DNA of 64,000 nucleotides from assembly GCA_910584295.1 (NCBI GenBank), contig CAJTYR010000004.1:41496-105495 (forward strand). Direction: 5' to 3'. Shown here piece by piece: positions 35,214 through 46,215 of this stretch (within the stretch, counting starts at the first letter, position 1; each line of letters starts with the position of its first letter). Under the pieces are notes generated by a model, which saw only the letters and a list, made by a program, of their open reading frames with translations, made no database searches and was not told where the DNA came from. The translations under genes were made by a program, and so were the position numbers. This stretch comes from an uncultured Christensenella sp. (GTDB taxonomy: Bacteria > Bacillota > Clostridia > Christensenellales > UBA1242).

Positions 35214-36743
35214 ATGGAAGAAAAAAAACACAAATTGGGTGTAAGTGCCTTGGTTTTGGTCATTGGTGGGCTTGTTTGCAAGTGTTTGGGTGCACTTTTC
35301 AGGCTTCCACTGACAAACTTGCTGGGAATTGAGGGTATTGGAGTTTTTCAGCTTATCATGTCCCTTTATTCCTTTTCTTTGGTTGTGACTTGTGGCGGTG
35401 TGGCGTCAAGTTTGTCAAAACTTATAAGTTCGGCAAGGGCAAGAGGAGAGCATGCAAAAATTTCGACATATTTGCAAAGATCGATTTTTCTTTCTGTCTT
35501 AATTGGGCTTATTATTGGTGCTTTATTTTTCTTTTGTGGCAAGTGGATTGCTTCTTTTCAAGGGATATCTTCAGGGAGTGGATATTTTCTCTTTGTTGCG
35601 CTTTTGCCGTTGGGTGGGTTGCTCGCTGTTTTTCGAGGCTTTTTTCAAGGCTATGAAAATATGTTGCCAACTGCAATAAGTCAAATCTTTGAGCAGGTTG
35701 CCAAATTTGGCTTTGGACTTTTGTTTGCTTTTTATTTTGGAAAACACGGCTTGAGTCAAGGTGTCTTTGGGGCATTTTTGGGGATTGTTATAAGTGAAGT
35801 TGTTGCATTTTTATTCTTATATGTCTTTTACCTTTTCAAAAGGGGTGATGTGCAAAAGTTGCAAGATTTAAGGCAAATTAAGTTTGTGCGAGGAGAATTT
35901 GACAGAGCGAATTTTTTGCTTATGCTCTCTGCCAGCATTTTGCCGCTTGTCAATGCATTTGATGCTTTGGTGATTGTTCCAAGGCTTGTGGATGCGGGCT
36001 TTTCAAGTGGTCTTTCTACAAAGATGTTTGGACTTCAAAGTGGGATTGCTGGAGCATTTTTAAATTTTCCTCTGGTCATTTCAGTCGCTGTGGCGACAAC
36101 GCTTTTGCCAAACATATCCTATCTGATTTCAAAAGGAGTGAAAGCAAGGCATGTGGTGGAAAAAGGGGTTAAAATTTTGATGTTTTTGGTCTTGCCAACA
36201 ACTTTTGGTCTTGTTGCAATTTCAAAACAAGTTTTACCACTTGTCTATAATGATCTGACAGGTCGTATGCTTGAATTGGTTTTTGAATTTATGCTTTATG
36301 GTGCATTTTCAATTGTTTTCACTGCCTTTATGCAATATTTCATCATGCTGTTGCAAGCTAATGGAGATTTTAAGTATATTGTTGTAATCACTGCAATTGG
36401 CGGCGTGGTGAAAGGTCTTACGACAGTTGTTCTTGCAGGGTTTCCACAAATAAATGTTTTTGCTTTGGTTTTGGGGAATATTTTGATGTCGGCCGTGATT
36501 TGTGTGTCTGCGTTGGTGAGGCTTAAAAAGATTTTCGGATTCAATCTCAAATTTTTGGATGTTTTGCTTATGGTGTTGGGTACGGCAGTTATGACGCTTG
36601 CGGTGTACACTTTTGCGGAAAAGACGTATTTCTCTGTTTTTGTCAATGTTGCTCTTGCAATTGTGATTGGGGTGCTTGTTTATGCTGTGTTTTGCGCGCC
36701 AGTGCTTTATCATATTTTAAAAAAGAAAAAAAATGCTGTTTAA
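35214..36743 (+). CDS. MOP-superfamily flippase (SpoVB/MurJ-like polysaccharide biosynthesis protein)
   Basis: About 14 predicted TM segments. N-terminus LVCKCLGALFRLPLTNLLGIEGIGVFQLIMSLYSF matches the SpoVB/MurJ-family pattern. GAGG SD before ATG 35214. Confidence 0.85.
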   Translation: MEEKKHKLGVSALVLVIGGLVCKCLGALFRLPLTNLLGIEGIGVFQLIMSLYSFSLVVTCGGVASSLSKLISSARARGEHAKISTYLQRSIFLSVLIGLIIGALFFFCGKWIASFQGISSGSGYFLFVALLPLGGLLAVFRGFFQGYENMLPTAISQIFEQVAKFGFGLLFAFYFGKHGLSQGVFGAFLGIVISEVVAFLFLYVFYLFKRGDVQKLQDLRQIKFVRGEFDRANFLLMLSASILPLVNAFDALVIVPRLVDAGFSSGLSTKMFGLQSGIAGAFLNFPLVISVAVATTLLPNISYLISKGVKARHVVEKGVKILMFLVLPTTFGLVAISKQVLPLVYNDLTGRMLELVFEFMLYGAFSIVFTAFMQYFIMLLQANGDFKYIVVITAIGGVVKGLTTVVLAGFPQINVFALVLGNILMSAVICVSALVRLKKIFGFNLKFLDVLLMVLGTAVMTLAVYTFAEKTYFSVFVNVALAIVIGVLVYAVFCAPVLYHILKKKKNAV

Positions 36744-36785
36744 TTGTTGCTTAAAAGTGCAATATTGCTTTTGGAGGAAAAAGAT

Positions 36786-37058
36786 ATGAATAAATCACAA
36801 TTTGTAGAAATTTTGGCAAAAAGGACAAGCCTTTCAAAGAGCAAATGCAGTCTGGTTATCGACCAGATGCGTGATGCCATTTTGGACATTTGTTCAAAAG
36901 GCGGAGATGTCAGCATAAGAAATTTTGGGAAGTTTTCTTTGCAAGAAAAAAAGTCTCGAAAGTTTTTAAATCCACAAACAAAACGATATTATTTTTGCAA
37001 GCCAAAGAAAGTTGTCTCTTTCAAAAGTTTTGACAACTTCAAATATGCAATAAATTGA
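36786..37058 (+). CDS. hup: HU family DNA-binding protein
   Basis: 90 aa, MNKSQFVEILAKRTSLSKSKCSLVIDQM...FGKFSLQEKKSRKFLNPQTK pattern. GGAGG SD. Confidence 0.9.
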   Translation: MNKSQFVEILAKRTSLSKSKCSLVIDQMRDAILDICSKGGDVSIRNFGKFSLQEKKSRKFLNPQTKRYYFCKPKKVVSFKSFDNFKYAIN

Positions 37059-37078
37059 TTGTGGCAAAGTTTCAAACG

Positions 37079-37110
37079 GCAAGAGGTGAAGTCTTGCTGT
37101 TTTCTTTTGT
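37079..37110 (+). terminator. terminator after hup
   Basis: GCAAGA (37079-84), 7-nt loop, TCTTGC (37092-97), followed by a T-rich tract. Confidence 0.6.
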
Positions 37111-37134
37111 TTTCTTTTGATTTTGTGTTAAGAT
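37107..37134 (+). promoter_or_regulatory. promoter of dus placed for a leaderless transcript
   Basis: Weak -35 TTGTTT (37107-12), 16 nt, extended -10 TGt-TAAGAT (37126-34), then exactly 6 nt (atcttt) to ATG 37141. No SD. Confidence 0.45.
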
Positions 37135-37140
37135 ATCTTT

Positions 37141-38088
37141 ATGAAAATAAAGACACTTGATTTTTCAGAAAGTCCGATTTTGCTTGCACCAATGGCTGGA
37201 GTGACTGATGTTGGGTTTAGAAACCTTGCATCTTCTTTTGGTGCGGATGCAACAGTGACAGAAATGCTTTCAGCAAGAGCAATGGAGCATAATCCCAAAA
37301 AGACCGCTTTCATGACTTTGACCACTGCTGCGGAAAAGATTAAGATTGCTCAAATCTTTGGACATGAGTCGGACTTTATGGCACGGGCAACAAAAAGTCA
37401 ACTTCTTGAAAAGTTTGACTCATTCGACATCAATATGGGCTGTCCAGCACCAAAAATTGTCAAAAATGGAGAAGGGTCAGCCCTTATGGACAATCTTGTG
37501 CTTGCAAGTGAAATTATTTCGGCTGTGAAAAAATCCACTGACAAACCAGTTTCAGTGAAGTTTAGAAAAGGAAGAAGCAAAGAGAACTTTTTGGAGTTTG
37601 CTCGCATGTGTGAAGAAAGTGGTGCGGATTTTGTCACTTTTCATGCAAGGACTGTGGAGCAAGGGTATTCTGGAAAAGCTGATTATGATGCAATTGCAAA
37701 GGTGAAGGCGTCTTTGAAAATACCTGTCATTGGAAATGGAGATGTGGTTGATAAAAAAAGTTTCATTTTGATGAAGGAGACTGGTGTTGATGGCGTCATG
37801 GTGGGAAGAGGAGCGATGGGCAAGCCTTGGATTTTCTCAGAACTTAAAGAAACAAGCCTGAAAGTGGATAGGTTTGAGGTTGTCAAAAAACATATTGAAA
37901 TCTTGAGAGAAAACTTTGAAGAGGACTGGCTTAAGCTTTATATAAGAAAGCATCTTTTGTGGTACGCGAGTGATCTTCCAATGAGTGCTAGTCTGCGGTT
38001 GAGACTTGCCACATGCGATGACATTGATGCATGTCTTGAAATTTTGAAAAATGCTTTTTCACAAAATTCAGGGAATTTTTTTGATTGA
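37141..38088 (+). CDS. dus: tRNA-dihydrouridine synthase
   Basis: LAPMAGVTDVGFR, INMGCPAPK, and TFHARTVEQGYSGKADY motifs. 315 aa. Confidence 0.92.
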   Translation: MKIKTLDFSESPILLAPMAGVTDVGFRNLASSFGADATVTEMLSARAMEHNPKKTAFMTLTTAAEKIKIAQIFGHESDFMARATKSQLLEKFDSFDINMGCPAPKIVKNGEGSALMDNLVLASEIISAVKKSTDKPVSVKFRKGRSKENFLEFARMCEESGADFVTFHARTVEQGYSGKADYDAIAKVKASLKIPVIGNGDVVDKKSFILMKETGVDGVMVGRGAMGKPWIFSELKETSLKVDRFEVVKKHIEILRENFEEDWLKLYIRKHLLWYASDLPMSASLRLRLATCDDIDACLEILKNAFSQNSGNFFD

Positions 38089-38142
38089 AAATGTTTTGAA
38101 TTATGATTGAAATGTTGTAAACTTAAGAAAAGGGTTGAAGGA

Positions 38143-39309
38143 ATGAAAAAGACGATAAGAGACATGAAAGATTTAAAAGGAAAAAGGGTTCTTCTTCGTT
38201 GTGATTTCAATGTGCCTCTTGACAATTATGGAGACATTTTGGATGACACAAGAATTTCAGCGGAGATCCCAACCATAAAATATTTGGCTGACCATGGAGC
38301 AAAAGTGATTGTTTGCTCGCATTTGGGCAGACCAAAAAGCAGTTATGACAAATATTTGTCCCTCTTTCCAGTTGCAGTTTATCTTATGAAAGTTTTTCCA
38401 AACAGAGTGAAGTTTTCAAGATCTCCTGCTGGAAAAGAGGCGGAAGCCGAGGTCGCAAAACTCAAAGAGGGGGAAATTTTGCTTCTTGAGAATGTTCGTT
38501 TTCTTGAGGGGGAGGAGATAAACAATCCAAAAGTTGTTCAAGAACTTTGCAAACTTGCCGACATCTATGTCAATGATGCTTTTGGCGTAACTCACAGAAA
38601 ACATGCTTCAACTTATGGCGTTGCAGTGAAATTGCCAAACGCAATTGGCTTTTTGGTGGAAAAGGAACTCAATGTTTTTGAAAATGCTTTTAAATCACCA
38701 AAGCATCCATTTGTTGCCATTTTTGGTGGAGCAAAAGTTGATGATAAAATCAATCTGATTAACAATGTGATGGACAAAGCTGACACAATCATCATTGGTG
38801 GCGGAATGGCATATACCTTTTTGCAAGCGCAAGGAAAGAAAATTGGAAAGTCAATTGTTTCTCTTGACAAAGTTGATGACGCTCAAGCAATTTTGGATGC
38901 TGCAAAAGCGAAAGGTATAAAGATTATGCTTCCTGTCGACCATGTGGTGTTGGATGGAGATAAAGTTGTTAAAACTCAAAAGCTTGATGGAAATATGGTT
39001 GGGCTTGACATAGGAAATGCCAGCATAAAACTGTTTACGAAAGAAATTTTGAATGCTCGACAGATTGTTTGGAATGGACCTGTTGGAAAGTATGAAGATG
39101 CAAGATTTAAAAAAGGCACAATGAAAATTGCAAAGGCAGTTGCAAAAGCTGATGCATATTCAATAGTAGGTGGTGGTGACAGTGTGAGTGCTGTCAAAGC
39201 AAGTGGATTCGCGGATCGCATAGGACATTTGTCAACTGGCGGTGGTGCCAGCATGAAACTTATGGAAGGAAAGCCTCTTCCAGCCATTGAAATCATTGAC
39301 AACAAATAA
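38143..39309 (+). CDS. pgk: phosphoglycerate kinase
   Basis: MKKTIRDMKDLKGKRVLLRCDFNVPL N-terminus and C-terminal STGGGASMKLMEGK. Start set at the ATG matching canonical PGK N-termini. Confidence 0.95.
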   Translation: MKKTIRDMKDLKGKRVLLRCDFNVPLDNYGDILDDTRISAEIPTIKYLADHGAKVIVCSHLGRPKSSYDKYLSLFPVAVYLMKVFPNRVKFSRSPAGKEAEAEVAKLKEGEILLLENVRFLEGEEINNPKVVQELCKLADIYVNDAFGVTHRKHASTYGVAVKLPNAIGFLVEKELNVFENAFKSPKHPFVAIFGGAKVDDKINLINNVMDKADTIIIGGGMAYTFLQAQGKKIGKSIVSLDKVDDAQAILDAAKAKGIKIMLPVDHVVLDGDKVVKTQKLDGNMVGLDIGNASIKLFTKEILNARQIVWNGPVGKYEDARFKKGTMKIAKAVAKADAYSIVGGGDSVSAVKASGFADRIGHLSTGGGASMKLMEGKPLPAIEIIDNK

Positions 39310-39399
39310 ACTTTGTGAGGTCAACAAAAGAAAAAGGTAGGCATCGAATTTTTTAAATGATTGAAGTCTATCAGTTGTGAAAATTTGTGTGGAGGATAT

Positions 39400-40149
39400 A
39401 TGAAAAAACTTATCATTGGAAATCTAAAGATGAACTCAACTCCAAGTGAGTTTAAATCTTATGCCATGACCATTGCCACAAAAACAAAAGGAACCAAAAA
39501 CACGATTGTGATTTGCCCACCTTTCACTCATCTTTCTGTTGCAAAGGAGATTTTGTCTGGAAGCAAGGTTGAATATGGCGCACAAAATATCTCGGAAGAA
39601 GAGAGTGGTGCTTTAACTGGTGAAATAAGCGCAAAAATGATAAAAGATTTGGGCGCTGATTATGTGATTGTGGGACACTCTGAAAGAAGACAAAAATTTA
39701 AAGAAACTGACAAAACCATAAACAAGAAAATCAAAACTGCACTTGCAAACGGACTTAAAGTTGTGCTGTGCGTCGGAGAAACATTGCAGACGAGGACAAA
39801 CAAGCAGGCTTGCACTTTTGTGAGAAAGCAGATTGATGACGACCTTAAAGGGATTTATGAAAACGAACTTGAAAGCGTTGTAATTGCATATGAACCAATT
39901 TGGGCAATAGGCTCTGGCAAAAATGTCACAGCAAAAGATGTTCAAAAAATGGTGGAGGCAATCAGAAAAGAGATTGAATATCTCTATTCAGTGAAAGCCA
40001 GTAAAAATGTTTCTGTCATCTATGGCGGTGGTGTGACTCTCACAAATTATAAGAAGCTGATTTCGCTTGAATTTTTGAATGGTGCTCTTATTGGTGGCAC
40101 ATGTTTGGATGTTGACAATTTTGTTGTCATAGCAAAAGAAAATTATTGA
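39400..40149 (+). CDS. tpiA: triose-phosphate isomerase
   Basis: IIGNLKMN, VGHSERR and AYEPIWAIGSG motifs. GGAGG SD before ATG 39400. Confidence 0.95.
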   Translation: MKKLIIGNLKMNSTPSEFKSYAMTIATKTKGTKNTIVICPPFTHLSVAKEILSGSKVEYGAQNISEEESGALTGEISAKMIKDLGADYVIVGHSERRQKFKETDKTINKKIKTALANGLKVVLCVGETLQTRTNKQACTFVRKQIDDDLKGIYENELESVVIAYEPIWAIGSGKNVTAKDVQKMVEAIRKEIEYLYSVKASKNVSVIYGGGVTLTNYKKLISLEFLNGALIGGTCLDVDNFVVIAKENY

Positions 40150-40157
40150 TTGGAGAA

Positions 40158-41264
40158 ATGATGAATCATATTGCACTTTACAGAAAATATAGACCAAAAA
40201 GTTTTGAAGAGGTGATTGGACAGGATCACATCACAAAAACTCTTCAAAACCAAATAAGTAGTGACCAAATCGGACACGCTTATCTTTTCACAGGCTCTCG
40301 TGGAACGGGAAAAACAAGTGTTGCAAAAATCTTTGCAAAAGCTGTAAATTGCTTAAGCCCTGTGAGGGGCTCGGCGTGTGGGCAATGTGAAAACTGCAAA
40401 AGACTTGAACAAGAAAATGATATAAACATCATCGAAATCGACGCTGCGTCAAACAACAAAGTTGACGATATCAGAGAAATAAGAGACAAGGTTAAATTCA
40501 TGCCTGTTGGGGCAAAATATAAAGTTTACATCATTGACGAAGTGCATATGCTTTCAGACAGTGCATTTAATGCTCTTTTGAAAACCTTGGAAGAACCTCC
40601 AGCCTATATCATTTTTATTTTGGCGACCACAGAGGTTCATAAGTTGCCACAGACAATTTTGTCAAGGTGTGTGCGTTTTGATTTCAGACTTGTTTCAACT
40701 GACAACTTGACAAAACTTCTTGCAAGAGTATTTGACAAAGAAAATGTCAAATATGATGAAGAGAGTTTGAAAATCATCGCAAATGCAGGTGAAGGAAGTG
40801 TGAGAGATACTCTATCAATTGCTGACTCAATCTGCTCTTTCTGTCAAGGCGAAATAACAAAAGAGAAGACACTTTCAGTTTTGGGAACAACCGACCATGA
40901 TCTTATTTTGGGTTTCTTTGACAAATTGAAAGAAAAAGATACTGGGGAAGTTCTTTCGCTTATTGATAAAATTGAGAAAGAAGGTAAAAATCTGGCTGTG
41001 TTTGCAAAAGACCTTTCAAAACACTCAAGAAATTTGCTTGTTTGTAAGTCTTGTGAAAATGCAAATGAAATCTTAAACCTCACGGACGATGTCTTTGAAA
41101 AGTATAAAGACCAAGCCGAAAAATTTGAAGAAAGAGATTTGATAAGATATATGCAAGTTTTTTCAGGAGCAGAAAGCGAATTGCGATACACTCTTTCAGT
41201 CAGACTCCTTTTGGAGACCACTTGTCTCTCGGCAATGTTGGGCTTTGATGTAAAAAAAAACTGA
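40158..41264 (+). CDS. dnaX: DNA polymerase III subunit gamma/tau, domains I-III only (0-frame product)
   Basis: GSRGTGKTS Walker A, IIDEVHML, LKTLEEPP and LSRC motifs. The frame ends ..GFDVKKN-TGA immediately after an A9 tract. About 368 aa, versus the >500 aa usual in Bacillota (from memory). Confidence 0.92.
   Translation: MMNHIALYRKYRPKSFEEVIGQDHITKTLQNQISSDQIGHAYLFTGSRGTGKTSVAKIFAKAVNCLSPVRGSACGQCENCKRLEQENDINIIEIDAASNNKVDDIREIRDKVKFMPVGAKYKVYIIDEVHMLSDSAFNALLKTLEEPPAYIIFILATTEVHKLPQTILSRCVRFDFRLVSTDNLTKLLARVFDKENVKYDEESLKIIANAGEGSVRDTLSIADSICSFCQGEITKEKTLSVLGTTDHDLILGFFDKLKEKDTGEVLSLIDKIEKEGKNLAVFAKDLSKHSRNLLVCKSCENANEILNLTDDVFEKYKDQAEKFEERDLIRYMQVFSGAESELRYTLSVRLLLETTCLSAMLGFDVKKN
41252..41260 (+). 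other. A9 homopolymer: candidate -1 frameshift or transcriptional-slippage site in dnaX
   Basis: GTA AAA AAA AAC TGA in the 0 frame. The -1 frame is open from 41249 and runs into the ATG at 41279. Confidence 0.5.
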
Positions 41265-41278
41265 AAATTGAGAAAGAT

Positions 41279-41593
41279 ATGACAAAAGTCACAGCAAACA
41301 ATGTTTGGGGAAAAGTTGTGCTTTATCTTAAGGAGCATAAAAAGGTTGCACTTCATGTGGCATGTGGGGACATCACAAATGCACAGATTGAAGCTGACAA
41401 ACTTGTCATTCGCTCTAGTGATGACTTTCTGATTGACATTCTTGAAAATGGAAGAAGAGACATCGAGACTGCCATTCGTTGGCAAGGACTTGAACTTAAA
41501 TTTGAAGTGATTAAGTTTGAAAGCAGTGAGCAAAAAATAAACAAAGACATCAAAAAACTTAAAAATTTTTTCAAAAAGATTGAGATTGACTAA
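41279..41593 (+). CDS. DnaX C-terminal-domain-like ORF (in the -1 frame relative to dnaX)
   Basis: 104 aa. W..V...L......L...........I....L.I......F.........IE.A pattern recalls the C-terminal domain of Bacillota DnaX/tau. Only a weak SD (GAGAAAG). Confidence 0.6.
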   Translation: MTKVTANNVWGKVVLYLKEHKKVALHVACGDITNAQIEADKLVIRSSDDFLIDILENGRRDIETAIRWQGLELKFEVIKFESSEQKINKDIKKLKNFFKKIEID

Positions 41594-41715
41594 CTTTTCC
41601 TTTGGAGAAAAGAAAAGTTAGCAAAAGAAAATCGATAAAAACTTGATTTTAGAAATAAAAAAACAAAGAAAAACAATACAATATAAAGGGGCAAAAAGCC
41701 TAAAGGAGAATTGAT

Positions 41716-42033
41716 ATGGGATACGGATTTGGTGGTTTCGGTGGAGGAAACAACATGCAGGCGCTTATGCGTCAAGCACAAAAAATGCAAGAGGACATGA
41801 GACGCATTCGTGAAGAAATTGATGGCACGGAATATACTTCTTCAGTTGGTGGTGGAATGGTTGAGGTCACGCTTTATGGAAACAAAACTGTTAAAGGTGT
41901 GAAGATCAAACCAGAGGTGGTTGACCCAGAAGATGTTGAAATGCTTGAAGATTTGGTGGCTTCTGCCATCGGTGATGCGCTTAGCAAAATTGCCGAGGAC
42001 GAGAAAAACAAATTGCCAAATTTGGGGATGTAG
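41716..42033 (+). CDS. ybaB: nucleoid-associated protein YbaB/EbfC
   Basis: MQALMRQAQKMQEDM...GGGMVEVTLYGNKTVKGVKI pattern. AAGGAG SD. Conserved dnaX-ybaB-recR order. Confidence 0.9.
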   Translation: MGYGFGGFGGGNNMQALMRQAQKMQEDMRRIREEIDGTEYTSSVGGGMVEVTLYGNKTVKGVKIKPEVVDPEDVEMLEDLVASAIGDALSKIAEDEKNKLPNLGM

Positions 42034-42139
42034 GACTATGCCGATGTATGGATGGCTTTGCATTGCTGGTGTCTGCGCCTTTTTGTTTGAAAAACTTGTC
42101 TCAAGATGGTGAGAAAGAAAATTAAATGGAAAAAATGCT

Positions 42140-42733
42140 ATGAGTGAATTTGAAGAGCCTATTGAAAAATTGATTGAATATTTTAGATCATTGCCAAGTG
42201 TTGGAAAGAAAACTGCTCAACGCTATGCTTTTTCCATTCTTGAAGGAAGCAAGGAAAAGGCTGAAAATTTTGCTCGTGCCATTGTTGAAGTGAAAGAAAA
42301 AGTTAAACTTTGCAGTGTTTGTGGGAATTATTCCGCAAGCGATGTATGTCCAATCTGCCAAAGACGAAATAGAAAAGTGGTTTGTGTTGTTCAAGAGCCA
42401 AAAGATGTTGTGTCTATGGAAAAAATCAAAAGTTTCGATGGTGTTTATCATGTGCTTTTTGGATGCATCAATCCGCTTGAAGGAAAGGGACCAAATGACA
42501 TACGCATCAAAGAGCTTCTTTCTCGTGTGGGCAAAGATGGTGTGGAAGAAGTGATTATGGCGACAAATCCAGATGTTGAGGGGGAAGCCACAGCAATGTA
42601 TATTGCAAAAGTACTTAAGCCTCTTGGTGTGAAAGTGACAAGGCTTGCTCAAGGAATATCAATGGGTAGTGATATTGAGTTTGCAGATGAAATCACACTT
42701 GAAAAAGCGCTCAGGGCAAGACAAGAAATATAG
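42140..42733 (+). CDS. recR: recombination protein RecR
   Basis: LPSVGKKTAQRYAF helix-hairpin-helix, Cys4 finger CSVCGNYSASDVCPIC, Toprim region. 197 aa. Confidence 0.93.
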   Translation: MSEFEEPIEKLIEYFRSLPSVGKKTAQRYAFSILEGSKEKAENFARAIVEVKEKVKLCSVCGNYSASDVCPICQRRNRKVVCVVQEPKDVVSMEKIKSFDGVYHVLFGCINPLEGKGPNDIRIKELLSRVGKDGVEEVIMATNPDVEGEATAMYIAKVLKPLGVKVTRLAQGISMGSDIEFADEITLEKALRARQEI

Positions 42734-42753
42734 AGGCGTTGCCTCTTTTTTTA
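42732..42753 (+). terminator. rho-independent terminator after recR
   Basis: AGAGGC-gtt-GCCTCT followed by TTTTTT. Confidence 0.8.
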
Positions 42754-42864
42754 TTGATTTCTTTGAAAAGAAAATTACTAAAAAAATTAAAGCGACATTG
42801 TCGCCTTTTGTTGATTATTTTTTTTTCATTTGTTATACTTTTGAATATAGACGGAGAAATAGAT

Positions 42865-44673
42865 ATGGATTTGAATTTTAAATTGGTTTCAATGATTTCA
42901 GAAAGTTTGGGTGAATATATGAGGGCATTTGCTGTTGAGCCTCAATATTACGATTTGTCAAAACTTGTTGTTTCTTTTTCAAATCGTCCAGAACTTTGTG
43001 ACTATCAAACAAATGTCGCAATGCTTATTGCAAAAAAAGTGGGGCAAAAGCCACTTGACATTGCAAACAAAATTGTCTCAAACATCAAGCCAAATGATGA
43101 GTTTGAATTTTTTGCTGTCGAGCCGGGGTTTATCAACATCAAAGTGAAGAACAATCGGCTGTCAAGATATGCAAATTTGGTGATGTATGACGGCAATCTA
43201 GGGATTCCTCGTGTCTTTCATCCAAGAGTTGTTCTGTTTGATTATGGTGGTGCAAATGTTGCAAAAGAGCTGCATGTGGGGCACTTGCGTTCTCCAATTG
43301 TAGGTGAGGCTCTTAAAAGACTTCATATGGTTATGGGAGATAAGACCATCTCTGATGTTCACCTGGGTGATTATGGTTTGCAAATGGGATTGACTATTTT
43401 GCAACTCAAAGAAGATGGCTATCTTGACAAATTCTTTAAAGACATTGTTGAGCATTATGACAATATTTCGCTTGATAATGTCACACTTGATCTTTTGAAT
43501 GAAGAATATCCAAAAGCAAGCAAACGCAAAGATGTGGATGAACAATTCAAGAAAATAGCAGATGAATATACGCTTTTCATCCAACAACATAAAGAGCCTT
43601 ATTTCTCTATATATAATAAGATTAGAAAGCTTTCCGTCGTTGAAATTAAGAAAAATTATGAGCTTCTTAATACGACTTTTGATTTTTATCTTGGTGAGAG
43701 TGATGCATATCCATATATTGACGAGACAATTCAAATCTTTGTTGACAAGAAACTTTCAAGAGAGAGTGAAGGTGCTTTGGTGGTTGATATTGCAAGAGAA
43801 GGAGAGCATGTCCCAATTCCAAAGAAGAGTGAAGATGAACCACAACGCTATAAAAATCCAATGCCTCCAGCAATCATCAAAAAGTATAATGGTGGAGATT
43901 TGTATGCCACTACTGATATCGCCACAATTCTCATGAGAAACAGAACTTTTAAGCCTCATGAAATTGTCTATGTAACTGACAATCGTCAATCTGGGCATTT
44001 TGAGCAGGTGTTCAGATGTAGCAAACTTGCAGAAATCTCTCCAGAAGGACAAAAGCTTACTCATGTTGCTTTTGGCACAATGAATGGTCGTGATGGAAAA
44101 CCTTTCAAGACTAGGGCTGGCGGAACGGTGAAATATAAGGATGTTGTTTCTTTGCTTGTGGAAAGTGCAGAGAAGAAACTGGCTGAGAATGGCATTGTCG
44201 GAGATAAAGAACTTGCAAGAAAAATTGGTGTGGGTGCGATGAAGTTTGGGGATTTGTCTAACACTGTTGCAAAAGATTATGTTTTTGACATTGACAAATT
44301 CTTGTCATTTGATGGAAAAACCGGTCCTTACATTCAATATACAATTGCTCGAATCAATTCCATTCTTTCAAAAGCGAATGGGAAATATGGCGCTGTCAGT
44401 GTTGAAACAGAAGAGGAAAGAAATATTGTGTTGGCAATTTTGAAGCTCAACTCTTCCTATAAGGTTTGTTATGACAGCTATTCTCTCAATACATTGTGCC
44501 TCGCTGCTTTTGACCTTGCGAGTGCATTCTCAACTTTCTATAACAATTGCAAGATTTTGACAGAACAAAATGAAGAAAGAAAATTGGCAATGCTTGGCAT
44601 TTGTTGTCTTGTTAAGAAGTGTCTTGAAAAAGCGCTTTGGACACTTGGAATTGATGCTGTTGAGAAGATGTAA
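42865..44673 (+). CDS. argS: arginine--tRNA ligase
   Basis: HVGHLRS (HIGH-type) and typical ArgRS anticodon-binding C-terminus. Start set at ATG 42865 (GGAG SD). The upstream 42 codons of the ORF track cover a terminator and promoter. Confidence 0.93.
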   Translation: MDLNFKLVSMISESLGEYMRAFAVEPQYYDLSKLVVSFSNRPELCDYQTNVAMLIAKKVGQKPLDIANKIVSNIKPNDEFEFFAVEPGFINIKVKNNRLSRYANLVMYDGNLGIPRVFHPRVVLFDYGGANVAKELHVGHLRSPIVGEALKRLHMVMGDKTISDVHLGDYGLQMGLTILQLKEDGYLDKFFKDIVEHYDNISLDNVTLDLLNEEYPKASKRKDVDEQFKKIADEYTLFIQQHKEPYFSIYNKIRKLSVVEIKKNYELLNTTFDFYLGESDAYPYIDETIQIFVDKKLSRESEGALVVDIAREGEHVPIPKKSEDEPQRYKNPMPPAIIKKYNGGDLYATTDIATILMRNRTFKPHEIVYVTDNRQSGHFEQVFRCSKLAEISPEGQKLTHVAFGTMNGRDGKPFKTRAGGTVKYKDVVSLLVESAEKKLAENGIVGDKELARKIGVGAMKFGDLSNTVAKDYVFDIDKFLSFDGKTGPYIQYTIARINSILSKANGKYGAVSVETEEERNIVLAILKLNSSYKVCYDSYSLNTLCLAAFDLASAFSTFYNNCKILTEQNEERKLAMLGICCLVKKCLEKALWTLGIDAVEKM

Positions 44674-44685
44674 AAAAGTTTGAAG

Positions 44686-44731
44686 AATTTTGAAAAAGGG
44701 TATTTACAAACGCAAAGTTTTGTGGTATTAT
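44686..44731 (+). promoter_or_regulatory. promoter plus conserved upstream element (copy 2) of the 113-aa gene
   Basis: AATTTTGAAAAAGGGTATTTACAAACGC (44686-44713) with -35 TTTACA (44703-08), 17 nt, TGg-TATTAT (44723-31). 27/28 identical to the reverse complement of 35129-35156. Confidence 0.7.
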
Positions 44732-44769
44732 ATGGCTGTAAATAAATGAAACACACGGAGGTATACGAA

Positions 44770-45111
44770 ATGGCAAATGTTAAAAACGAATCAACTGCTT
44801 ATGGTTTGAATGTAAATTGTCTTACAGCAGATGGGGCACTTAATAAATATATGGCTGTCAATATTGGTTTGGGAGGCAAGACATCAGTAAGAGATGTTTT
44901 GAGAGCTACAGAATTTGCGGACAGAAAAACTGATCTTCCAAAAGTGACAATTGACACTTCAAAAATTCATATTGAAGGTTTGGAATGCAAAACTCCACAT
45001 GGGGCAGTTAAGGAAGTGAAAGCATCAGCAATCATTCCACCAAAATTTTTGAATGCTTCAAAAAATTCAACACATTCTCGTGAAGAAGCGGTGTTTGGAA
45101 GAAATCGTTAA
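44770..45111 (+). CDS. hypothetical cytoplasmic protein (113 aa)
   Basis: GGAGG SD (44757-61) 8 nt before ATG 44770. MANVKNESTAYGLNVN... No family recognised. Confidence 0.7.
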   Translation: MANVKNESTAYGLNVNCLTADGALNKYMAVNIGLGGKTSVRDVLRATEFADRKTDLPKVTIDTSKIHIEGLECKTPHGAVKEVKASAIIPPKFLNASKNSTHSREEAVFGRNR

Positions 45112-45120
45112 ACACAACAA

Positions 45121-45150
45121 AAAATCGCAAAAATTTTGCGATTTTTTTTA
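45121..45150 (+). terminator. terminator after the 113-aa gene
   Basis: AAAATCGCAAAA-a-TTTTGCGATTTT palindrome followed by extra T residues. Confidence 0.7.
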
Positions 45151-45220
45151 AATCATTTTGAAATTATATTTTTATATGATAAAATCAATATATAAAACAA
45201 ATGTTTCTTGGAGATTTGTG

Positions 45221-45493
45221 ATGGAAAAGTTTAAGCAATACCTTTATCCTGCCATTTTTGTTAAAGACGAAGATGATGCATATCAAGTTATTTTCCCAGA
45301 TTTGGACATTTTTACAGATGGAGTAAATTTGTCTGAAGCATATTTGGCAGCAAAAGAACTTTTGCGTGTCTACTTTTCTTATGTTCATAAATATGAAATT
45401 GAATATAACAATCCAACAAAACTTGAAGAACTTTCAAAAAGATGCAAAGAAAATGAAACTGTATTGCTTGTTGATGCTTACGTAAACAACTAA
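45221..45493 (+). CDS. HicB-like antitoxin-fold protein (N-domain only, orphan)
   Basis: MEKFKQYLYPAIFVKDEDDAYQVIFPDLDIFTDGVNLSEAYLAAKELL fits the YPA.F...EDG.Y.V.FPDLPG..T.G....EA pattern of HicB-family N-domains. GGAG SD before ATG 45221. About 90 aa, with no RHH/HTH tail. Confidence 0.6.
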   Translation: MEKFKQYLYPAIFVKDEDDAYQVIFPDLDIFTDGVNLSEAYLAAKELLRVYFSYVHKYEIEYNNPTKLEELSKRCKENETVLLVDAYVNN

Positions 45494-45499
45494 AAATTT

Positions 45500-45526
45500 A
45501 AGTCGCAATTGAAGCGACTTTTTTTG
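45500..45526 (+). terminator. terminator after the HicB-like gene
   Basis: AAGTCGC (45500-06), 7-nt loop, GCGACTT (45514-20), then TTTTT. Confidence 0.75.
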
Positions 45527-45590
45527 TTGAAAGCAAAAGAATGAGCAATAAAAAATTTTAAAATATTTTTCACTCTTTCCTCCAAAACAC

Positions 45591-45619
45591 TTGACTTATT
45601 GGGATGTCTATGATATATT
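45591..45619 (+). promoter_or_regulatory. promoter of the rpmG-secE-nusG cluster
   Basis: TTGACT (45591-96), 17 nt, TGa-TATATT (45611-19). Confidence 0.6.
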
Positions 45620-45669
45620 TATTTCGACACTTTCAAAGGGTGTTAGTTTTTTTGTTAGGAGATAAAATC

Positions 45670-45831
45670 ATGGCAGCACCAAAACGCAAGATTATTACAC
45701 TTGAATGTACAGAATGTAAAGAAAGAAACTATTCTACAATGAAAAATACAACAAACAATTCAGAAAGAATAGAAATCAACAAGTTTTGTCCAAGATGCAA
45801 TAAGAGAACAAAACATAAAGAAACAAAATAG
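45670..45831 (+). CDS. rpmG: 50S ribosomal protein L33
   Basis: 53 aa, [23 protein letters not shown]...[14 protein letters not shown] (CxxC...CxxC). AGGAG SD. Confidence 0.92.
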
Positions 45832-45846
45832 TATTTGGAGGAAAAT

Positions 45847-46215
45847 ATGTCAAAGAAGCAAAAAGCTCTTGAAGCGGAAATTGCAAATGACAATTCACAG
45901 GCGCAAGACAACATCTCTCAAGGTGTAGTTGCTCCTGCTGGAAAGACCAATAAAAAAGAAAAGACCAAAGACAAAGAAAAAAACAAGAAAAAGAAAAAAG
46001 ACAAAAAAGAGAAAAGAGGTTTCGGCAAGCGCGTTAAAGAAACTGCTTCCGAACTTAAGAAAGTGACATGGCCTTCTTTTGGCGAAGTGTGCAAAAAGAC
46101 AGGTATCGTTATCGCTTTCGTGGTTATTTTTGGAGTGTTCTTGTTTGGGGTTAACTATTTGCTGGGCGGGCTTGTCAGCTTGCTTAATAATGGAACTTGG
46201 AATCCATTCAAATAG
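45847..46215 (+). CDS. secE: preprotein translocase subunit SecE (with a K-rich N-terminal extension)
   Basis: C-terminal ELKKVTWPSFGEVCKKTGIVIAFVVIFGVFLFGVNYLL is canonical SecE. GGAGG SD. Conserved rpmG-secE-nusG order. Confidence 0.88.
   Translation: MSKKQKALEAEIANDNSQAQDNISQGVVAPAGKTNKKEKTKDKEKNKKKKKDKKEKRGFGKRVKETASELKKVTWPSFGEVCKKTGIVIAFVVIFGVFLFGVNYLLGGLVSLLNNGTWNPFK

Follow-up and report, generated by a model that had tools for sequence, protein, structure and literature searches.

The dnaX locus and its two reading frames

We analysed a 64,000-nucleotide stretch of DNA from an uncultured Christensenella sp. (contig CAJTYR010000004.1), referred to here as the window, in which the clamp-loader gene dnaX is divided between two overlapping reading frames. 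The reading frame of dnaX (the 0 frame) ends directly after a run of nine adenines (A9), and the -1 frame, which is open across this run, leads into a second coding region, the tail. The features at the dnaX junction are the following, with positions counted from the first letter of the window.

40161-41264, + strand: 0-frame open reading frame (ORF) of dnaX, encoding a predicted gamma-like product of 367 amino acids (aa) with domains I-III (Pfam, NCBIfam)
41246-41248, + strand: TGA in the -1 frame, which closes that frame upstream and leaves it open only from 41249
41249-41593, + strand: -1-frame coding region, made up of KKK, an 18-codon linker and the tau C-terminal domain, with its stop TAA at 41591-41593
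41252-41260, + strand: A9 slippery run and candidate recoding site, read as GT[A AAA AAA AA]C in the 0 frame and as AAA AAA AAA (KKK) in the -1 frame
41261-41264, + strand: invariant C and then the 0-frame stop TGA (41262-41264), directly after A9

The 0 frame has three start options (ATG 40161, ATG 40158 or TTG 40146), with a GGAG closely upstream, and it ends in ..GGC TTT GAT GTA AAA AAA AAC TGA. The two frames share just 16 nucleotides (nt) with the A9 run in the middle, and this is the only place where a shift can join them. Inside the -1-frame coding region lies an ORF of 104 codons (104 aa, 41279-41593) that opens with ATG 41279. The A9 run, the stop behind it, the -1 frame open from 41249 and the small ORF had all been pointed out in a first-pass annotation made from the sequence alone, and every one of them is present.

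Counted from ATG 40161, the 367-aa product of the 0 frame contains the Pfam domains DNA_pol3_delta2, DNAX_ATPase_lid and DNA_pol3_gamma3, which correspond to domains I-III of DnaX. It covers the NCBIfam model TIGR02397 (dnaX_nterm) over its full length. In contrast, it spans only positions 2-354 of the 567 in NF004046, the Bacillota-type DnaX model, and is therefore predicted to be a gamma-like protein. This agrees with the first-pass annotation, which had put the product at about 368 aa and had assigned it domains I-III only. A slip into the -1 frame within the run would yield a predicted fused product of 477 aa with the junction ..GFDVKKKLKIEKDMTKV (..GFDVKKK-LKIEKD..). The proposal that such a slip makes a tau-like protein (then put at about 478 aa) was also part of the first-pass annotation, and it is supported by the conserved two-frame layout described below.

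Downstream of the tail, dnaX is followed by two genes in a conserved dnaX-ybaB-recR operon, and the same gene order was found in loci L081, L084 and L085.

41716-42033, + strand: ybaB/ebfC (Pfam YbaB_DNA_bd)
42140-42733, + strand: recR (Pfam RecR_HhH, RecR_ZnF, Toprim_4 and RecR_C)

Both ybaB and recR are usual partners of dnaX. A perfect 10-bp inverted repeat (CTAACTTTTC ... GAAAAGTTAG, with a 12-nt loop) lies at 41590-41621 and overlaps the stop codon of the tail ORF; it is followed by no T-run and has no Rfam match. An Rfam scan of positions 36000-46000 likewise returned no relevant match.

Conservation of the junction and identity of the tail

To follow the site through related organisms, one genome per GTDB species was scanned with the small ORF. 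This yielded 105 species-level genomes, from which 80 loci were kept, and the junction in each locus was placed from the tblastn frames of the two parts, independently of any motif. The result is strikingly uniform. Exactly nine adenines stand at the junction in 79 of the 80 related loci, as they do in the window, and in each of the resulting 80 A9 sequences, the window's among them, the run is followed by C-T-(G or A)-A, so that the 0 frame reads AAC and then TGA (72 sequences) or TAA (8 sequences). The tail lies in the -1 frame in every locus except L056, and the shift is never +1. The site is kept although identity drops to 65% in the N-terminal part of DnaX and to 44% in the tail. The overlap between the frames ranges from 13 to 91 nt in the relatives; the run is inside it each time, and in each of them the -1 frame is already open before the run begins. 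Thus the A-run and the two-frame layout, whose conservation the first-pass annotation had suggested checking, are retained, and no fused gene was seen among the relatives apart from L056 and some more distant lineages.

A genetic code in which TGA is read as Trp or Gly was considered and rejected. The same stop is TAA in eight of the A9 sequences, the 0 frame closes again at once beyond it, and the neighbouring genes are of normal length.

The nucleotides that flank the run are also constrained. The codon before it encodes V, A, S or T, and its third base is A without exception. The base after it is C in every A9 sequence, though T would be synonymous in both frames. Selection here acts on the junction nucleotides themselves.

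A single A9 in 64 kb is by itself unremarkable, and its significance comes from its place and its conservation. At 36% G+C, a first-order model predicts about 6.6 occurrences of A9 in the window, where two were observed. Pooling the related loci (482 kb) gave 405 runs of A7, 59 of A8 and 80 of A9, and 79 of those A9 runs were the dnaX site with just one elsewhere. By these counts, long A-runs are avoided elsewhere in these loci and retained at the dnaX junction. The only other A or T 9-mers in the window are an A9 at 1825-1833 and a T9 at 42818-42826. The former begins within the TAA stop of the ORF at 195-1826, that is, at a gene end, and the latter lies after recR in the upstream part of a long, TTG-started argS ORF, before its probable true start. 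Neither appears to be inside real coding sequence, which fits the avoidance of such runs in genes.

Frame-wise variability and stop codons were then compared across 74 species. Judged by third-position variability, the coding frame is that of dnaX as far as the run (ratio 2.04) and the -1 frame directly past it (1.70 between +13 and +57, then 3.49). Past the run, the -1 frame has no stop in any of the 74 species; a stop comes within 21 nt in the 0 frame of all of them and in the +1 frame of 61. An invariant W-G motif marks the start of the conserved domain, and in 74 of 80 species it follows the run at a spacing of exactly 18 codons. Signals for separate initiation of the tail show no such constancy. 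No start codon is conserved: the first ATG, GTG or TTG falls after W-G in 36 of the 80 species, and an ATG ahead of the domain, like that at 41279 in the window, is found in just about eight. No ribosome-binding motif precedes the candidate tail starts in these species, the sole matches being the TGGGG of the W-G codons themselves. Gene callers accordingly report tail ORFs of 83-125 aa with arbitrary starts, some of which cut into the domain. Furthermore, metatranscriptome contigs span the dnaX/tail junction, and no promoter-like or terminator-like site was found between the two ORFs. Taken together, these analyses indicate that translation passes on from dnaX into the tail and that the tail has no initiation of its own.

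The identity of the tail was addressed by profile searches and by structure prediction. The small ORF has 276 close homologues, and all 120 among the matches listed are short ORFs. On its own, the small ORF of the window gave no significant match to Pfam or NCBIfam, and a search of PDB sequences with the tail profile returned chance-level matches only. When the tail profile was run against 1.84 billion representative proteins, it found 115 relatives, nearly all of them short ORFs. Among DnaX proteins, it also matched P0151 (E = 8e-11) and P0220/P0309, in each case at a C-terminal domain that is in frame. P0151 and P0220 are DnaX fragments, recognized by Pfam through the lid and domain III, that carry the tail domain in frame at their C-terminus; P0151 aligns to positions 158-538 of NF004046. 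P0309, which belongs to P0220's cluster, is a complete DnaX of 491 aa in which the domain is fused without a lysine run. In addition, P0166, a short and distantly related ORF of this family, aligns to positions 466-552 of the 585 in the DnaX model NF011512 (E = 1.6e-4). The fused window protein aligns end to end with NF011514 (488 positions) and NF011523 (474 positions) with no gain in score, and these alignments were not counted as evidence.

A first AlphaFold model of the tail, built on a shallow alignment, was mediocre (pLDDT 70.7) and was redone with a more diverse alignment. The new model reached a pLDDT of 82.7 and has the topology H-H-E-E-H-H-E-H. Its best PDB match is domain I of B. 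subtilis DnaA (4tps_B; TM 0.72, rmsd 2.4 A), followed by other DnaA N-terminal domains, KH domains and DciA, and no match reaches E <= 0.001. The N-terminal domain of DciA, DnaA's domain I and DnaX's domain V are reported to share a KH fold (PMC9912922). Based upon the in-frame fusions elsewhere, the match to the C-terminal part of NF011512 and the KH-like fold of the model, we conclude that the tail ORF encodes the tau-specific C-terminal domain of DnaX, a KH-like, domain V-like unit of about 90 residues behind an unusually short linker of 18 residues. The resemblance to Bacillota DnaX C-termini noticed at first pass is borne out by these searches. The tail would then be the part of the protein that tethers polymerase and helicase, its presumed binding partners.

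Proposed recoding at the A9 run and its alternatives

With these observations in mind, we propose that this organism recodes dnaX to obtain two products from the one gene, and that the slip is most likely programmed transcriptional slippage, possibly with a ribosomal contribution; we put the probability of this reading at roughly 0.6. Standard transcription and translation would end at the TGA after A9 and give the 367-aa gamma-like subunit, which lacks the tethering tail. In a fraction of expression events, the frame would move to -1 within A9 and give the 477-aa tau-like protein, which would keep the N-terminus and add the 18-residue linker and, at its C-terminus, a KH-like counterpart of domain V of DnaX. 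We predict that during transcription the nascent A-run shifts against the T9 template, so that RNA polymerase inserts a single untemplated A, and that the resulting A10 mRNAs are then translated in the ordinary way on into the tail. With A8 or A11 the product would be short once more, since a stop soon interrupts the +1 frame after the run in most species. That both proteins are made, in what ratio, and whether the slip occurs at the level of RNA polymerase or of the ribosome are points that we infer from this layout.

Several observations favour the level of RNA polymerase. Conserved RNA pairing was sought with RNAalifold in 34 diverse sequences, over 100 nt downstream and 70 nt upstream of the run, and zero conserved pairs were found on either side; no conserved element resembling a Shine-Dalgarno (SD) sequence is visible in the alignment upstream of the run. 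The run is never shorter than nine in the relatives, whereas seven would suffice for a ribosomal heptamer. Runs of this length are avoided elsewhere in the same loci, and avoidance of long runs has been described as a signature of slippage-prone length (Baranov et al. 2005, PMC1088944). The run is also kept in lineages of opposite polarity and in distant ones, as set out below. Finally, there are precedents in T. thermophilus dnaX, in the two-ORF poly-A dnaX genes and in tssM1. Because the site lacks a conserved RNA stimulator, always has at least nine adenines in a background that avoids them, keeps its run when the polarity changes and resembles these precedents, transcriptional slippage is favoured.

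A terminator scan flagged a weak hairpin with several G-U pairs at 41228-41242 (CTCGGC AAT GTTGGG), which ends 9 nt before the A-run. Hairpins in the RNA next to such a site can promote slippage during transcription; in the relatives this hairpin is not conserved. One RNA-derived Logan contig (run X29) begins exactly at 41252, the first A of the run. Such a start is expected for a de Bruijn branch caused by A9/A10 heterogeneity, and the same start would result if strains differed at 41251 (T/C) or if coverage was low, which makes the observation ambiguous.

Two lineages appear to have the opposite polarity. L056:1918-3345 (DVLK01000080, Candidatus Caccovivens faecavium), the only non-A9 locus among the 80, has A10 and a single in-frame dnaX of 475 aa. 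Slipped transcripts of this gene with A9 or A11 would stop at once (AAC TGA, or ..ACT GAA AAT TGA). If real, the A10 would give this species the polarity of Thermus; an error of assembly is the other possibility. In L085:600-660, a single contig of JGI metagenome 3300014204 that encodes P0151, the tail is fused in frame (..VEVKKKITEPK..) with an A10 kept (GTC AAAAAAAAAA TAACTGAA), and TAA and TGA stops stand directly after A10 in the other two frames. L085 thus appears to have the layout of T. thermophilus at the homologous position. More distant loci retain the -1 arrangement, with TTT-A9-CTAA in L081:2470-2500 and CG-A10-CTAA in L083:2510-2535. Their -1 ORFs are 176 and 196 aa long, with a linker of 60-90 residues before the C-terminal domain, and their surroundings include rlmB-like and sigma-factor genes upstream and ybaB downstream.

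A number of points weigh against programmed transcriptional slippage, or against the account as a whole. Three metatranscriptome contigs cross the run at a depth of 2-4 and all read A9; assembled contigs drop minor variants, and these contigs argue weakly against very efficient slippage (about 50% or more). The A10 transcripts and the tau protein are themselves predictions from sequence. The tail model resembles domain V of E. coli tau itself weakly (5fku_E, E = 0.55). Simple transcriptional slippage gives no reason for the invariant C. Moreover, the run holds two overlapping -1 heptamers, A_AAA_AAA (41252-41258) and A_AAA_AAC (41255-41261), and slippage of the ribosome on either or both, possibly aided by the adjoining stop codon, can explain the same layout. 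A purely ribosomal, programmed -1 shift on unedited A9 mRNA would give the same two products. Both heptamers follow the pattern X_XXY_YYZ in the dnaX frame, A_AAA_AAC is a known shift site that the invariant C creates, the 0-frame stop comes directly after the site in all species, and the A9 reads of the RNA contigs are what an unedited message would give. The direction, -1 and never +1 across the 80 loci (with L056 fused), is a criterion of Antonov et al. for ribosomal frameshifting. On the other hand, neither a 3' stem-loop or pseudoknot nor a 5' SD-like element is conserved, and in E. coli both heptamers are far less shift-prone than A_AAA_AAG. A heptamer would also tolerate A7 or A8, and neither length occurs in the 80 species or in the distant L081 (A9) and L083 (A10). 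We therefore regard a purely ribosomal shift as possible but rather unlikely.

Two further explanations dispense with recoding. In one, short DnaX and the small ORF are separate polypeptides, made by independent initiation or by termination-reinitiation and perhaps associated non-covalently. ATG 41279 of the window does sit 15 nt past the dnaX stop, and gene callers annotate the tail as a separate hypothetical protein in all relatives. Against this stand the start codons, which are not conserved and in many species fall inside the domain, and the missing ribosome-binding motif. The stretch that separates the run from any start (LKIExDxTKLS..) is also conserved in a coding-like manner in the -1 frame, that frame opens upstream of the run in every case and includes it, and the same domain is covalently fused to DnaX in other lineages. 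Separate translation of the small ORF, which the first-pass annotation had listed as an alternative, is thus disfavoured, and we consider it quite improbable. The other explanation, also raised at first pass in the form of a misread A10, is artefact or decay: a homopolymer error in sequencing or assembly, a pseudogene, or phase variation at the DNA level. Homopolymers are error-prone and subject to replication slippage, and L056 is recorded with A10 and a fused gene. However, four independent metagenome assemblies (DNA runs) that contain this organism, from mouse gut, all read A9 with no indel, and 79 independent assemblies of relatives from various studies and hosts do so as well. Both parts of the gene are under purifying selection, and since dnaX is essential, on/off switching of tau by phase variation is implausible. 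We consider an artefact or decay extremely improbable.

If programmed recoding at A9 is accepted, the present annotation of these genes as a truncated dnaX and a "hypothetical protein" should be replaced by one recoded gene with two products in some 100 or more species of uncultured gut Clostridia. A gamma-like default product in a clade of Bacillota suggests that mixed gamma/tau clamp loaders are selected in PolC-type replisomes too. With its invariant A9-C-stop, its lack of RNA stimulators and its flips of polarity nearby, the site would be a good system for separating transcriptional from translational slippage and for studying the control of product ratio. We can speculate further, and tentatively, that at least 80 species of gut Clostridia, together with distant lineages that have longer linkers, run a PolC-type replisome in which gamma-like DnaX is templated and tau arises only by obligatory slippage on A9. 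The gamma:tau ratio might then be set by RNA polymerase, the invariant C might tie this ratio to nucleotide supply (slow addition of C giving more slippage), and the polarity might flip by single bases between sister lineages such as L056 and L085. If true, a gamma-like DnaX would be the default within a phylum believed to lack gamma.

Comparison with known systems

In E. coli, dnaX is recoded by a programmed -1 ribosomal frameshift at A_AAA_AAG. This site and the present one have in common the gene, the position where domain III gives way to the tail, an A-rich heptamer, the -1 direction and, in one frame, a stop right after the site. The E. coli site comes with a conserved SD-like stimulator upstream and a stem-loop downstream; here neither is conserved. 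In E. coli the short product is the one made by the frameshift.

In T. thermophilus, dnaX is expressed through transcriptional slippage on A9 (Larsen et al. 2000, as described in PMC1088944). Similar to the gene in the window, it has A9 at the end of the gamma part, two products per gene and stops near the run in the frames that do not encode tau. The polarity is opposite, however: in T. thermophilus tau is templated and gamma comes from slipped transcripts. The first-pass annotation had called attention to this reversal. It was right that the short product is the in-frame one here, whereas the reversal as such is not new, having been described by Antonov et al. (2013, PMC3711429).

Outside dnaX, a comparable case is tssM1 of Citrobacter rodentium, in which about 20-25% of products regain the C-terminal domain through transcriptional frameshifting on A11 and both forms are needed (PMC4256274). 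There, too, the gene is interrupted after a poly-A run, and a relative (Yersinia tssM3) has the flipped polarity. The gene and its function are different, the run is longer, and tssM1 has experimental proof where our case is built from comparative genomics.

Within the same phylum, B. subtilis makes full-length DnaX only (PMC13220808). It shares with the present organism the dnaX-ybaB-recR neighbourhood and a DnaX of the clamp-loader family; in contrast, the templated product here has no tail. In the literature searched, which is an incomplete sample, we found no report of a two-ORF recoded dnaX in Clostridia or other Bacillota.

The closest likeness is to the dnaX genes collected by Antonov et al. 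in 2013 (PMC3711429), who found 17 dnaX genes in 12 genera that span two ORFs and need recoding for tau. Their examples come from Chlorobi, Bacteroidetes (Flavobacterium, Cytophaga and Capnocytophaga) and Verrucomicrobia; Coraliomargarita is among those named. Most have a poly-A tract, usually A10, and transcriptional realignment was inferred there, not shown (PMC3711429). Two-ORF recoded dnaX genes were also noted by Atkins et al. (2016, PMC5009743). As in the 2013 set, the window has an ORF for the gamma part, a 0-frame stop right after poly-A, a tail in the -1 frame and a site kept across genera, and at the level of sequence the present dnaX has every feature of this two-ORF kind. The differences lie in the host, which is a group of uncultured gut Clostridia (Bacillota) around "Candidatus Caccovivens", in the run, which is strictly A9 with C and then a stop directly behind it where the earlier genes mostly have A10 and then G, in the very short tail (an 18-residue linker plus about 90 residues) and in the much deeper sampling. 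The dnaX gene described here is thus a layout known since 2013 from other phyla, now found in a new and unannotated clade.

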